DNA of 64,000 nucleotides, taken from an uncultured Actinomycetes bacterium. GTDB taxonomy: Bacteria; Actinomycetota; Thermoleophilia; Gaiellales; Gaiellaceae. How positions within the stretch are numbered: the first letter of the stretch is position 1; each line of letters starts with the position of its first letter. Where the stretch lies: assembly GCA_963722755.1 (NCBI GenBank), contig CAVROJ010000006.1:102255-166254 (forward strand), read 5' to 3'. The translations under genes and the position numbers were made by a program. Shown here in pieces: positions 3,277-12,654 of this stretch. The notes beneath the pieces were generated by a model. It did no database searches. It was not told the origin of the DNA and was given only the letters and a program-made list of their open reading frames with translations.

Positions 3277-4325
3277 CCGTGCACCCGCCGGAGCTCGTCG
3301 AGGTCCCGCGCGAGGGAGGCCGGCGGATCGGCGTAGGCGTGGGAGAAGATGAGCTCCGGGTCGCCCGCCGGCTCGTCCTCGGCCTGCTGGATCCCGGCGC
3401 GCATCGTGGCGAGCGCATCTGCCCGGACCGCCTCCGCCCGTTCCTCGTCGAGCAGACCCAGGCGTTTCAGGTAGGCCTCGAAGAGCGTGATGCAGTCGCG
3501 CTCCTGCTCGGCGGCGACGCGATCGGGATCGATGTACATGCTCGGGTCGTCCGCCGTCGCGTGCGGCGCCGACCGGTACGTCACCGCCTCGACGAAGGTC
3601 GGGCCGTCACCCGCACGGGCCCTCGCGACCCCTTCTCGCACGGCCTCGAAAACGGCGAGGACGTCGTGCCCGTCCACGCGGATCCCAGGCATCCCGTACC
3701 CGATCGCCTTGTCCGCGAGGCGCGCGGCTGCGGTCTGCGCGCTGAGCGGCGTCGAGATCGCCCACTGGTTGTTGTTGCAGACGAGGACGAGCGGCGCGCG
3801 TACGACTCCTGCCAGGTTGGCCCCTTCGTGAAACGCGCCCTCGGACGTCGCCCCGTCGCCGAACAGGACGGCGGCAACCGCGTCCGACCCCTTGAGCGCG
3901 AGACCCCACGCGAGCCCCGCGGCGTGCGGGACCTGCGTGGCGATCGGGACGCAGATGGAGGCGACGTTGACGTCCGCCGGGTTCCACCACCCCGAGGGGT
4001 GGCCGCGCCACCACTGCAGGATGGTCGCGGCCGACAGGCCGCGGAGGAGGCCGATCGCCGAGTCGCGGTAGCTGGGGAAGATCCAGTCGCGCTCCTCGAG
4101 CGCGTGGACGAGACCCGCCTGGATCGCCTCGTGCCCACGGAAGATCGCGTACGTCCCGATCCTGCCCTGGCTGTGGTAGACGACCGAGCGCTCGTCGTAG
4201 CTGCGCAGCAGGACGAGCGAGCGGTGGAGCGCGAGCAGCGCGTCGTCGTCGAGCGCGTCGAGCCTTCGATCGGGCTCGCCGTCCACTCCGATCACACGCC
4301 GCAGGCCCTGCTCGACGACACTCAT
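3273..4325 (-). CDS. pdhA: 2-oxoacid dehydrogenase E1 alpha
   Basis: ThDP motif GDGATSEG...NNQWAIS and HATADDP. Start placed at MSVVEQ. Confidence 0.9.
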   Translation of the reverse strand: MSVVEQGLRRVIGVDGEPDRRLDALDDDALLALHRSLVLLRSYDERSVVYHSQGRIGTYAIFRGHEAIQAGLVHALEERDWIFPSYRDSAIGLLRGLSAATILQWWRGHPSGWWNPADVNVASICVPIATQVPHAAGLAWGLALKGSDAVAAVLFGDGATSEGAFHEGANLAGVVRAPLVLVCNNNQWAISTPLSAQTAAARLADKAIGYGMPGIRVDGHDVLAVFEAVREGVARARAGDGPTFVEAVTYRSAPHATADDPSMYIDPDRVAAEQERDCITLFEAYLKRLGLLDEERAEAVRADALATMRAGIQQAEDEPAGDPELIFSHAYADPPASLARDLDELRRVHG

Positions 4326-4391
4326 CACCGGAAGTGAAACAACGTTTCTCTTTTGGCGCAAATCCACCGCGGCACGCTCGGGGCGTCGAGC

Positions 4392-4416
4392 GGTGTCAGA
4401 CACCGAAAGCTGTCAA
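4392..4416 (-). promoter_or_regulatory. pdhA-direction -35 (TTGACA) plus palindromic operator GGTGTCTGACACC
   Basis: Minus strand reads TTGACA-GCTTTC-GGTGTCTGACACC; the same layout recurs at 4524-4548. Confidence 0.6.
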
Positions 4417-4523
4417 GCGGGGCCCGCCATCTGTGGACACCCGGCGCCGCGATCCGCCGACGTCACCGGCCCCCTTGCCTCCCGGCTGTGGAGCGATCGG
4501 CACGAAGTCGGCGCATGCCCCCC

Positions 4524-4548
4524 TTGACGGAAAATGGTGTCTGACACC
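4524..4548 (+). promoter_or_regulatory. Regulator-direction -35 (TTGACG) plus identical palindromic operator
   Basis: TTGACG-GAAAAT-GGTGTCTGACACC upstream of the FadR-family gene. Confidence 0.6.
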
Positions 4549-4598
4549 GGTGGCGCCCGCCATCCCGCATCCCCGCGAACCCTGCGAGACTGCCGCCC

Positions 4599-5357
4599 AT
4601 GCCGCCTCCGATGGCCTTCGACGTGGAGCCGGTCCGCGCGACGCGGACGTTCGAGGCCGCGATCGAGCACCTCACCGAGGCGATCGAGCGGGCCGGGTTG
4701 CGCACGGGCGACCGCCTTCCCAACGAGGGCACGCTCGCCGAGCAGCTCGGCATCTCGAAGCCGACTTTGCGGCAGGCGTTGCGGGTGCTCGAGCTGTCAG
4801 GGCTCGTCCAGGTGCGCCGGGGGAAGTCCGGAGGCATCTTCGTCGCGACCGACCTCGTCCCGTCCGTCGCGATCTTCACCGCGGTGAAGCTCGAGGAGGC
4901 CGCGGCGGTCGACGTCCTGCGGGCGCGCCGCGTGCTCGAGCGGGCGGTCGTCCACGAGGCGATGCGCACGGCGACGGCCGCCGACCTCGTCGAGCTCGAG
5001 CGGACGGTCGACCTGCTCGAGCGCCATCTCGGCGAGCGGCCGAGCGTGATGCGGGCCGACGCGATGTTCCACCGCGCGCTCGTGAGGAGCTGCCGCAACG
5101 AGACGATCCGGGCCGCGATGCGCGGGGTCGGCCGCGGGCTGGCCCCGATCAGGGACGCGTACTCCGGAGGCGTGGCCTACGACCGCCAGACGCTCGACGT
5201 GCACCGCCGCCAGATCGCCGCCATGCGGCGGCGTGACGAGGATGCGCTGGAGAAGGTGCTCGACGAGCACTTCCGCATGCTCGAGACGCAGTTCGCGAAG
5301 GGCATCGGCAGGCGCTGGTCGGACCTCTTCGGCCCTCGCGCACGCCGCACCACGTGA
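4599..5357 (+). CDS. GntR/FadR-family transcriptional regulator (FCD domain)
   Basis: GDRLPNEGTLAEQLGISKPTLRQALRVLE winged HTH; DAMFHRAL FCD motif. Confidence 0.92.
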   Translation: MPPPMAFDVEPVRATRTFEAAIEHLTEAIERAGLRTGDRLPNEGTLAEQLGISKPTLRQALRVLELSGLVQVRRGKSGGIFVATDLVPSVAIFTAVKLEEAAAVDVLRARRVLERAVVHEAMRTATAADLVELERTVDLLERHLGERPSVMRADAMFHRALVRSCRNETIRAAMRGVGRGLAPIRDAYSGGVAYDRQTLDVHRRQIAAMRRRDEDALEKVLDEHFRMLETQFAKGIGRRWSDLFGPRARRTT

Positions 5358-9307: not shown

Positions 9308-9810
9308 GTGCGTGTCGGGCTGATCGCCGACACCCACGGCCTGCTCCGCCCCGAGGTCGCCGCCGCATTCGACGCCGTCGAGCACATCGTCCACGCCGGC
9401 GACGTGGGCTCGCTCGAGGTCCTCGAGGGCTTGAGCGCGATCGCGCCGGTCACCGCGGTCTGGGGCAACGTGGACGGTCCCGAGCTGCGCGCGGTGCTGC
9501 CCGGAGGTGGCCAGGGTGGCTCTCGGCGGCGCGCGCGTGGTCGTCGTGCACGGCGACCAGCTCGGCTCTCCGACGCCCGAGCGGGTCGCCGCCGCTCATG
9601 CCGGGTGCCGATCTCGTCGTCTTCGGCCACTCCCACCGGCCGCTGATCGATCGCGTCGGCGACGTCCTGGCCGTCAACCCGGGGAGCGCCGGGCGCCGCC
9701 GATTCTCCAGCCCCGTCAGCGTCGCCCTTGCCGATCTCGAGGCCGGCTCGGTCAGCGCCCGACTCGTCACGCTCGGCGGCGAGCGCGGGACCGCGCCATA
9801 CTCGCGCTGA
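9308..9810 (+). CDS. YfcE-like metallophosphoesterase (indel)
   Basis: IADTHG, HAGDVG, VWGNVD, FGHSH, NPGSAG motifs. Confidence 0.88.
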
Positions 9811-11442
9811 TGGCGACGAGCGCTGCACCTCCGAGCCAGCCAACCAGCCGCCGCCGCTCGAGGGCTACGACCTCTTCTCGGAGAACCGCCCGCTCGTCGA
9901 GGCGCTGCGCCGCGAGGGAGCGCGCGCGATGCCGAGGAGCGTTGCGCCGCGTTCGGGCGGCTCTGCGGCGGCGAGCCGCTCGAGCTCGGACGGCTCGCGA
10001 ACGAGCATCCGCCGGTCCTCCGCACCCACGACCGCTTCGGCGAGCGGATCGACGAGGTCGAGTTCCACCCCGCGTGGCACGAGCTGCTCGGGCTCGGCGT
10101 CGAGCACGCGCTGCACGCGCTTCCCTGGCGCGAGCCGGCCGAGGGCGCACGTCGTCCGTGCGGCGCTGTTCATGACGCTCGCCTACGCCGAGGCGGGCGT
10201 CGGCTGCCCGCTCTCGATGACCTCACGCCGTCCGTGCCCGCGCTCCGCGCCGCGGCACCGGAGCTCGCGGCCGAGTGGGAGCCGCTCCTCGCCTCGACGA
10301 CCTACGACCCGGGCCTGCGACCGCTCGTCGGCCAAGCAGGGGCGCGCTCTGCGGGATGGCGATGACCGAGCGCCAGGGCGGCTCGGACGTCCGCGCGAAC
10401 GAGACGCGCGCCGAGCCCGTCGGACGACGCGCTACCGGCTCGACCGGGCACAAGTGGTTCTGCTCGGCGCCGATGTGCGACGCCTTCCTCGTCCTCGCGC
10501 AGGCCCCGGATGGGCTCACCTGCTTCCTGCTGCCGCGTGTGCTCGACGACGGCACGCGCAACGGCTTCCGGATCGAGCGCCTCAAGGACAAGCTCGGCAA
10601 CCGCTCGAACGCCTCGGCGGAGATCCGGCTGGAGGAGCGCGTTCGCGTACCGCGTCGGCGACGAGGGCCGCGGCGTGGCGACGATCATCGAGATGGTCGT
10701 CCACACGCGGCTCGACTGCGTGCTCGGCTCGGCCGCGATCGTGCGCCGCGCCGTCGCCGAGGCGACCCACCACGCCGCGCACCGTGACGCCTTCGGCCGG
10801 CTGCTCGCCGAGCAGCCGCTGATGCAGAACGTGCTCGCCGACCTCTGCCTCGACTCGGAGGCGGCGACCGCCACCGCGCTGCGGCTCGCCCGCGCCTTCG
10901 ACGAGGGCGACCACGCCTTCCGGCGGCTCGCGACCGCCGTGGCCAAGTACTGGGTGTGCAAGGCGACGCCGCCGCTCGTCGCCGAGGCGCTCGAATGCCT
11001 CGGCGGCAACGGCTACGTCGAGGAGTCGGGCCTGCCGCGCCTCTTCCGCGAGAGCCCGCTCAACTCGATCTGGGAGGGGTCGGGGAACGTCAACTGCCTC
11101 GACGTGCTGCGCGCGCTCGAGCGCGAGCCCGAGAGCCTGGAGGCGTTCCGCGCCGAGCTCGCGCTCGCCCGTGGGGCCAACCCGCACCTCGACGCCGCCC
11201 TCGCGCGGCTCGACCGGGAGCTCTCGGGCTCGGAGGACGCCGAGCCCGTGGCGCGACGGCTCGTCGAGGGGATGGCGCTCTGCCTGCAGGGCTCGCTGCT
11301 CGTGCGCCATGCGCCCTCGGAGGTCGCCGACGCCTTCTGCGCCGCCCGGCTCGGGGACGAGGGCGGGCGCGCCTACGGCACGCTCCCCCGCGGCGTCGAC
11401 GCGGCCGCGATCGTGGAGCGCCACCGCCCGCGGGTCGGGTAG
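9810..11442 (+). CDS. AidB-like acyl-CoA dehydrogenase (indels)
   Basis: NQPPPLEGY, GMAMTERQGGSDV, GHKWFCSAPMCD, KDKLGNRSNAS, EALECLGGNGYVEE, SIWEGSGNV. Confidence 0.9.
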
Positions 11443-11452
11443 CGTCCCGGGC

Positions 11453-11701
11453 GTGCGCGTCGAGATCTTCTACTGCCCGGTCTGAAACGGCTACGACCGC
11501 CGGGCCGCGAGTCTCGCGGCCGTGTTGAACGCCGCGGGGCACGAGGCGTCCGCGATCGAGGGCGAGAAGAGCCAGTACGACGTCGTCGCCGACGGGAAGC
11601 TCGTGTTCTCGAAGCAGCGCGAGGGCCGCTTCCCCGAGGACGACGAGGTCGTCGGCCTGCTCGGTGTAGCCGCGCCGGTAGCTCGAGCCGCGCCGTCCTG
11701 A
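11453..11701 (+). CDS. Rdx/SelW-SelT-SelH family selenoprotein; in-frame TGA at 11483-11485 read as Sec
   Basis: MRVEIFYCPV-U-NGYDRRAASLAAVLNAAGHEASAIEGEKSQYDVVADGKLVFSKQREGRFPEDDEVVGLLG. CxxU motif and the family's 'G.LVFSK...GRFP' C-terminal motif lie in one frame across the TGA. Confidence 0.85.
11503..11521 (+). promoter_or_regulatory. Bacterial SECIS-like hairpin
   Basis: GGCCGCG-AGTCT-CGCGGCC, starting 17 nt after the UGA; the apical loop contains GU. Confidence 0.7.
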
Positions 11702-11722
11702 CCCGACTACGCTGCACCTCGC

Positions 11723-12654
11723 ATGGCGCTCCTCCGGGCACGCGAGCTGACGAAGACGTTCGGCGCCGTCCGGGCGCTCGACGCGGTCAGCTTCGAGATC
11801 GACGAGGGCGTCACGGGGCTGCTCGGGTCGAACGGCGCGGGCAAGAGCACGTCGCTCAAGCTGTTCCTCGGGCTGCTCGACCCGGACAGCGGCTCGGCCG
11901 AGGTGCTCGGCCACGATCCGCGCGCCTCTCCCGAGTACCGCGCGCGCGTCGGCTACGCGCCCGAGCACGACTGCCTCCCGCGGGGCGTCTCGGCCGCCGA
12001 GTTCCTCGCCTACATGGCCCAGATCAGCGGCCTGCCGTCCGACGGCGGCGAGGCTGCGGGCGTCGGACGTGCTGCGCCACGTCGGCCTGTTCGAGGAGCG
12101 GTACCGGCAGATGGGGACGTACTCGACCGGGATGAAGCAGCGCGTGAAGCTCGCGCAGGCGCTCGTCCACGATCCGGTGATCGCGTTCCTCGACGAGCCG
12201 ACCGCCGGCCTCGACCCGCTCGGCCGCCGCGAGATGCTCGACCTCGTCCGGCGCGTCGGCGGCGAGTTCGGGATCAGCATCGTGATCTCGACGCACCTGA
12301 TGGGCGACGTCGAGCGCGTCTGCGACTCGGTCGTCGTGCTCGACGCGGGCCGGCTCCTGCGGACGGGCGCCGTGTCCGGGCTTCACGGAGGAGACCGAGA
12401 CGCTGGAGGTCGAGTTCGTCGAGGGCGCCGCGGCGGTGGCCGACGGGCTTCGGCGGACGAGGGCTCGAGCCACGGCTCGACGGGAGCCGTCTGACGCTCG
12501 AGCGGGTGTCCGGCGAGGAGTACGACATGCTCCGCGACGCCATCGTCGACTCGGGCGCGCTGCTCTACCGGCTCGCGCCGGCACGACACTCCCTCGCGGA
12601 CGTCTTCGCGAGCGATCCGGGCGAGGCCGCGGCGAGAGCGAGGAGCCGCCGTGA
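11723..12654 (+). CDS. ABC-2 exporter ATP-binding subunit 1 (indels)
   Basis: GSNGAGKST, YSTGMKQR, FLDEPT, STH motifs. Confidence 0.9.

Follow-up and report, generated by a model that had tools for sequence, protein, structure and literature searches.

Selenoproteins of the SelW-like type, which belong to the Rdx family, were described in bacteria by Zhang, Gladyshev and co-workers (PMC1088965, PMC1794560, PMC2398784); as a bacterial family they are well established, and their selenocysteine (Sec) form predominates over the Cys form. Actinobacteria were already placed among the selenoprotein-rich phyla by Zhang et al. in 2006 (PMC1794560), and Sec machinery has been described in mycobacteria (PMC13449736). 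The gene analysed here lies in a 64,000-nucleotide stretch (hereafter the window) of a metagenome-assembled genome (MAG) of an uncultured member of the Gaiellaceae. It resembles the bacterial SelW-like proteins in its small thioredoxin fold, in an N-terminal CxxU motif placed just after beta-strand 1, and in a SECIS element located within the coding sequence, 3' of the UGA. It differs from the described SelW-like proteins in belonging to a Gaiellaceae/Thermoleophilia subfamily (CPVU...FSKQREGRFP) and in its apparently leaderless mRNA. In a literature search, we found no paper describing this subfamily or selenoproteins of the Gaiellales. The best joint explanation of the data, at a probability of about 0.93, is that the locus is a genuine Rdx/SelW-like selenoprotein gene with a SECIS element and a likely leaderless mRNA. 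Its coding features are as follows:

11453..11701, forward strand: coding sequence of the Rdx/SelW-like selenoprotein, 82 codons as assembled, with a GTG start and the stop TGA at 11699-11701
11474..11485, forward strand: CxxU redox motif, TGC CCG GTC TGA, read as Cys8-Pro-Val-Sec11
11483..11485, forward strand: UGA codon, predicted to encode Sec; TGA in 49/49 type-1 orthologues and in all type-2 paralogues examined

The initial annotation had proposed a frame that opens at the GTG, meets an in-frame TGA and continues without a frameshift, and every coordinate given there proved exact. The frame from GTG 11453-11455 encodes V/M-RVEIFYCPV, reaches TGA 11483-11485 as its 11th codon and runs on in the same frame, with the residues NGYDRRAASLAAVL...VFSKQREGRFPEDDEV after the TGA and then the stop. 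The assignment to the Rdx (SelT/SelW/SelH) proteins was likewise borne out, and the read-through protein exceeded both sequence thresholds for family membership. Pfam PF10262 (Rdx) matched residues 2-68, across the TGA, with 41.4 bits (cut-off 22.6), and TIGR02174 (CXXU_selWTH) scored 37.6 bits (cut-off 34.2). The best-scoring NCBIfam model was NF041051 (SelTWH_Campy, SelT/SelW/SelH family (seleno)protein equivalog), in which residues 3-70 aligned with positions 1-69 of 70; membership of this equivalog was rejected at 55.9 bits against a cut-off of 88, the two belonging to the same superfamily.

The AlphaFold2 model of the protein (pLDDT 84.3) showed the order beta-alpha-beta-beta-beta-alpha and the thioredoxin-like fold characteristic of the Rdx family, with a disordered tail beyond residue 72. 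The CxxU motif directly follows the first beta-strand, the model having a strand at residues 2-7, then a loop, and a helix at 14-27. In a Foldseek search with this model, the top 21 matches were Rdx proteins, the best being bacterial SelW-related ones (TM 0.76-0.80, rmsd 1.4-2.0 Å), followed by thioredoxins, glutaredoxins and mouse SelW. The family profile matched seven solved Rdx proteins, with the CxxU aligned on their CxxC (YCTQC in 3DEX and 2FA8). The solved Cys-form proteins SAV_2001 (3DEX), Atu0228 (2FA8), VcR75 (2P0G), 2OBK, 2OJL and 2OKA share the fold and the motif position with the window protein, whereas they carry CxxC (YCTQC), are about 20-30 residues longer and are only 22-29% identical to it. 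The Rdx fold and a CxxU/CxxC motif are also shared with mammalian SelW (2NPB; Foldseek TM 0.56) and MIEN1 (2LJK; profile match E = 8e-9). The eukaryotic SECIS, however, is a kink-turn in the 3' UTR that is read by SBP2 and eEFSec, whereas that of the window gene is a hairpin within the coding sequence, predicted to be read by SelB. The product is a small thioredoxin-fold Rdx protein of about 70-82 aa with a predicted role as a thiol/selenol oxidoreductase, and its physiological substrates would presumably lie in thiol/disulfide or peroxide-linked redox chemistry, as in other Rdx proteins.

The element expected to recode the UGA is a hairpin shortly downstream of it:

11503..11521, forward strand: bacterial SECIS hairpin with a 7-bp G+C stem (11503-11509 with 11515-11521) and the apical loop AGUCU (11510-11514)

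A perfect stem 17 nt past the UGA with a GU-containing loop had been reported at first reading, and it is present exactly so (GGCCGCG/AGUCU/CGCGGCC). The spacing from the UGA to the loop is 24 nt, and the A and U of the loop are able to pair, which would leave a GUC triloop. The published model of bacterial SECIS elements specifies a loop of 3-9 nt, an upper stem of 4-16 bp, a G in the first two loop positions, a UGA-to-loop distance of 16-37 nt and a minimum free energy (MFE) of -7.5 kcal/mol or below (PMC13188914, Fig. 2). With its 5-nt loop (G at position 2, then U), 7-bp stem, 24-nt spacing and MFE of -14.7 kcal/mol, the window hairpin lies within all of these limits. The isolated hairpin was also more stable than expected for its composition (z = -3.6), none of 200 shuffles being as good. 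When the 58 nt that follow the UGA were folded as a whole, the MFE structure preferred another pairing and was no better than shuffles (z = -0.83); thermodynamics alone is uninformative in sequence of 71% G+C. An Rfam scan of positions 10500-12500 at E ≤ 10 gave no match at the hairpin, which is a short element.

Evolutionary support for the hairpin came from covariation. In an alignment of 50 sequences, covering types 1 and 2 of the paralogues and a distant homologue, the helix was paired in 98.8% of cells, and compensatory changes were found in four of the seven pairs (G-C to C-G or A-U; C-G to U-A or G-C), together with wobble intermediates. None of 500 shuffles reached the observed values, and sliding the partner strand by 1-3 columns lowered the paired fraction to 29-59%. 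Synonymous sites within the element were frozen as well: Ala19 was GCG in 48/48 sequences, Leu21 was CTC in 48/48 and Ser20 was AGT in 46/46. The Ser20 AGT codon supplies the G-U of the loop and is a rare A/T-ending codon, conspicuous at 71% G+C. The SECIS of E. coli fdhF is a hairpin directly 3' of the UGA, whose apical loop (AGGUCU) exposes a G-U. Compared with it, the window loop is one nucleotide shorter, a bulged U is not evident and the stem consists entirely of G+C; the loops found in this genome, AGUCU in both Rdx genes and GGUCU in fdhA, are comparable to that of fdhF.

The organism had been expected to use Sec, and a search of its genome for selA, selB, selC (tRNA-Sec with anticodon UCA) and selD had been proposed as a check. 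All four genes were found. SelA (449 bits, above its cut-off) and SelD (329.7 bits) were accompanied by a SelB with the EF-Tu GTPase, SelB beta-barrel and SECIS-binding SelB-wing_3 (49.4 bits) domains, and selB is followed, about 2.4 kb downstream, by a tRNA-Sec (Rfam 68.3 bits; ARAGORN SeC(tca)). When the genome was scanned for the pattern of a TGA and a subsequent hairpin whose loop reads NGUCU or NGUGU, both the window gene and fdhA were recovered. The genome is predicted to hold at least three selenoprotein genes, namely two Rdx paralogues and fdhA; the two beyond the window gene, which add to the case for Sec use, are:

C13:120267-120479 (= L083:1250-1498), reverse strand: Rdx-2, the type-2 paralogue, MADRHHIRIEYCVP-U-...GRYPEPDDV, Pfam Rdx 63.7 bits
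C39:97800-99700, forward strand: fdhA (formate dehydrogenase alpha), with its Sec codon at C39:98038 (L082:2539) and the site CNRT-U-HAPSV

Both are followed by hairpins. That of Rdx-2 is SECIS-like and also carries the loop AGUCU, with one internal C-C mismatch in the stem, and that downstream of fdhA has the loop GGUCU.

The selA and selB genes show frame changes in this indel-rich assembly, and the rival explanation that survives best, which we still regard as very unlikely, builds on them: selA, selB and fdhA would be truly frameshifted, the gene would be a relic in this strain, and the UGA would terminate translation after 10 codons. On C36, selA indeed gives matches in two frames; ORFs 4094-5194 and 4575-5834 of L084 each hold a part of selB; and the TIGR01591 match of fdhA is scattered over five pieces in different frames, suggesting some four indels in that gene. 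Unrelated genes of the window, however, are split in the same manner, as shown by Pfam half-domain matches for two ABC ATPases and an acyl-CoA dehydrogenase. Moreover, a single selA-selB locus is represented twice in the assembly, where one contig ends (C36:9381-14614) and where another begins (C34:1-5294); the two versions agree at 96.7% with 21 gaps and then at 86.9% with 31 gaps. The MAG (3.0 Mb, 40 contigs, 71.5% G+C) is estimated at only 58.7% completeness, compared with 90-97% for congeners of 2.5-3.9 Mb, and low-quality, indel-rich contig ends probably explain this estimate. Because unrelated genes are broken alike, the duplicated contig ends differ by gaps and completeness falls below that of the congeners, we read the frame changes as indel errors of a long-read MAG rather than as decay of the Sec trait. 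The Rdx frame, its TGA and its hairpin are all intact, which further argues against a relic.

Homologues were drawn from 24 congeners and from 35 alignable loci recovered in a scan of 185,579 species genomes, and the related records were mostly soil MAGs. A homologue was present in 22 of the 24 congeners searched, with an in-frame TGA in nearly all matches. Two types could be told apart: type 1, to which the window gene belongs (...FYCPV-U-NGYD...FSKQREGRFP), and a type-2 paralogue (...EYCVP-U-SARPNA...GRYPQPDDV). Aligning homologues for Cys or TGA at this position had been suggested as a check, and the result was uniform among the type-1 orthologues from Gaiellaceae/Thermoleophilia MAGs, which carried TGA at the Sec codon and TGC at Cys8 in 49/49 cases each. 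TGA also occupied this position in the type-2 paralogues (L041-L045 and the copy in the same genome) and in the distant homologue L081. One true Cys homologue was found, P0017 (CPVC). After the TGA the frame stayed open, and dN/dS was below 1 in 48/48 comparisons with the window gene, with a median of 0.48, a value of about 0.5 denoting moderate constraint only. A conserved in-frame UGA followed by conserved coding sequence is the pattern by which bacterial selenoproteins are recognised.

These data bear directly on the reading of the locus as a nonsense pseudogene, or of the TGA as a sequencing error for TGC or TGT. An in-frame stop at codon 11 does look like a broken gene in isolation, and the assembly is error-prone; yet the same TGA recurs in all 49 orthologues, in independent short-read and long-read assemblies and down to about 50% identity, as well as in a second paralogue family, and conservation extends to the frame beyond it, to the motifs and to the hairpin. 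The comparative data in effect refute this reading, and we consider it very improbable.

It is equally improbable that the real gene is only the short ORF of the gene callers, running from GTG 11522 to the stop, or a 48-aa form of it. Public databases do hold more than 100 N-terminally truncated calls of exactly this kind (48-56 aa, mostly 48 aa). Such an ORF would leave out two defining features of the family, beta-strand 1 and the redox motif, whereas the Pfam match at residues 2-68 spans the TGA. Conservation of the 10 N-terminal codons is, in addition, high, and in-frame stops and a TANNNT hexamer at a fixed position precede them. Among the database versions that span the site, P0002-P0016 have W, G or L where Sec is expected, P0017 alone being a true Cys form; this suggests that the genes were called under genetic code 4 or 25 and on short metagenome contigs.

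The W or G in some of these translations could also be taken for a genome-wide reassignment of TGA to Trp or Gly, which is excluded in all likelihood because the tRNA-Sec is the sole tRNA with anticodon UCA in the genome and the tRNA-Trp has CCA; the genome also encodes a dedicated SelB that has a SECIS-binding domain, and TGA serves as the terminator of the window gene and of 11 of the 19 other congener homologues tabulated. Since the same genes both carry TGA in frame and end in it, decoding of TGA depends on context.

The start of the gene was examined together with the sequence in front of it, where one further feature was located:

11440..11445, forward strand: TAGCGT, a -10-like hexamer (TANNNT) 7 nt upstream of the GTG, presumed leaderless promoter

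The position of this hexamer was confirmed as first described; its TAG is at the same time the stop codon of the upstream ORF at 10510-11442. Orthologues fix the start of the gene, with ATG or GTG at this position and, in many, in-frame stops just upstream, and the Pfam model begins at residue 2. A TANNNT hexamer ended 6-8 nt before the start in 47/49 type-1 orthologues, with no other spacing from 0 to 20 nt, and the spacing was kept even where the upstream gene differed. The intervening cccgggc is without GGAGG, and the window copy has no Shine-Dalgarno sequence; the distant L081 has GGGAGG instead. A -10 hexamer some 6-8 nt upstream of a start codon that has no Shine-Dalgarno sequence is the arrangement associated with leaderless transcripts. 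Within the window, TANNNT-N6-RTG occurred at seven sites (478, 17547, 18729, 28187, 34907, 52250, 56803) against 2.5 expected, which suggests that leaderless genes may be common in this organism. A scan for E. coli-type sigma-70 promoters found nothing, as expected for an actinobacterium of 71% G+C. The suggestion of the initial annotation that the mRNA is leaderless thus gained support from the fixed position of the TANNNT hexamer, and on these sequence grounds a leaderless mRNA is well supported but unproven.

Under the selenoprotein reading, the UGA at 11483-11485 would be decoded as Sec by the standard bacterial route. SelB-GTP carrying Sec-tRNA(Sec) would bind the hairpin with the AGUCU loop through its C-terminal winged-helix domain and bring the Sec-tRNA to a ribosome that has paused at this codon. 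Transcription would most likely begin at or next to the GTG, directed by the TAGCGT -10 element, and give a leaderless mRNA whose Sec codon would lie about 30 nt from the 5' end.

The 3' end of the frame needs a qualification. The initial annotation had run the frame to 11701, which stands through the Rdx domain and becomes doubtful for the last 13 codons, because the relatives are shorter. They end right after ...LLG or ...LLV, at about codon 71 (around 11663-11669), and the 13-residue tail of the window gene (VAAPVARAAPS; 11663-11701) has no counterpart in them. A TAG is present one base out of frame at 11667-11669. Given where the relatives stop, a 1-nt indel, an error of the kind seen elsewhere in this assembly, has probably produced these 13 residues. 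The database relatives P0018 and P0020 are 96-98% identical.

The distribution of the trait was assessed at the level of the order and of the phylum. In the order, the SelB winged helix was found in 34/41 genomes, including all 17 high-quality ones. Family f4 (G027, G031, G035 and G039; 78-88% complete) was the only one in which no genome (0/4) gave a SelB winged-helix match; it also yielded no Rdx match, and the best tRNA-Sec scores were only within the range of the tRNA-Ser false positive of the window genome. This joint absence speaks for the selenoprotein reading, and the family may have undergone a lineage-specific loss of the Sec trait. For the phylum, an even sample of 301 Actinomycetota genomes was used, each at least 85% complete except the window's own. 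A homologue was present in 71/301 genomes, and in 59 of these, about one in five of the sample, a match bore one in-frame TGA, the codon position not being individually checked. Several families were near-saturated (19/21, 9/9, 14/14), and Cys forms dominated in large genomes of 8-10 Mb. The tally takes in nine unpublished genomes (G275, G041, G263, G058, G088, G187, G213, G300 and G122), so that the phylum-level counts rest on them in part, and publishing them needs the permission of the depositors. The initial annotation had called Sec uncommon in Actinobacteria; this view does not hold, as the use of Sec is not especially rare there, judging by the listing in PMC1794560 and by the 59/301 genomes with an in-frame-TGA homologue.

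Nothing is new in the protein family, in the mechanism of recoding or in the use of Sec by Actinobacteria, and the value of the locus is that of a clean, comparatively validated example. For annotation, it means that the Rdx gene is systematically lost, since its 11th codon is UGA. For biology, it would make Sec decoding a property of this member of the Gaiellaceae and of most of its order, which bears on the selenium demand of soil communities. Going further, we offer a tentative proposal whose chances we rate clearly below even: Sec decoding might be ancestral and near-universal in the Gaiellales, an abundant soil order, with two Sec-only Rdx paralogues that are mostly missing or mistranslated in annotation. 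The type-1 gene might then be a natural minimal leaderless unit (start codon, nine codons, UGA, and SECIS at most 70 nt from the 5' end), on which 70S-initiated ribosomes would meet SelB almost at once. If true, a major soil lineage would require selenium, and the gene would provide a compact natural cassette for the study of Sec insertion near initiation.

The genes on either side of the locus are as follows:

10510..11442, forward strand: C-terminal part of an AidB-like acyl-CoA dehydrogenase, Pfam Acyl-CoA_dh_1 109.7 bits
11723..15287, forward strand: ABC-2-type exporter cluster (ATPase, permease, ATPase, permease), with Pfam ABC_tran half-domains in two ORFs and ABC2_membrane_4

The N-terminal part of the acyl-CoA dehydrogenase lies in another frame (9728-10819), where AidB_N matches. 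A four-gene ABC-2 exporter had been noted downstream; the succession of ATPase, permease, ATPase and permease does have that look, although the genes are broken by frame changes in the assembly. The acyl-CoA dehydrogenase precedes the Rdx gene in only 17 of the 54 other homologous loci screened and the ABC exporter follows it in only 10, and the gene neighbourhoods of these loci gave no functional clue. The start of the ABC cluster, ATG 11723, has TACGCT 9 nt upstream, and orthologues have TAGCCT 6-7 nt upstream of their ATG; each gene seems to have its own promoter.
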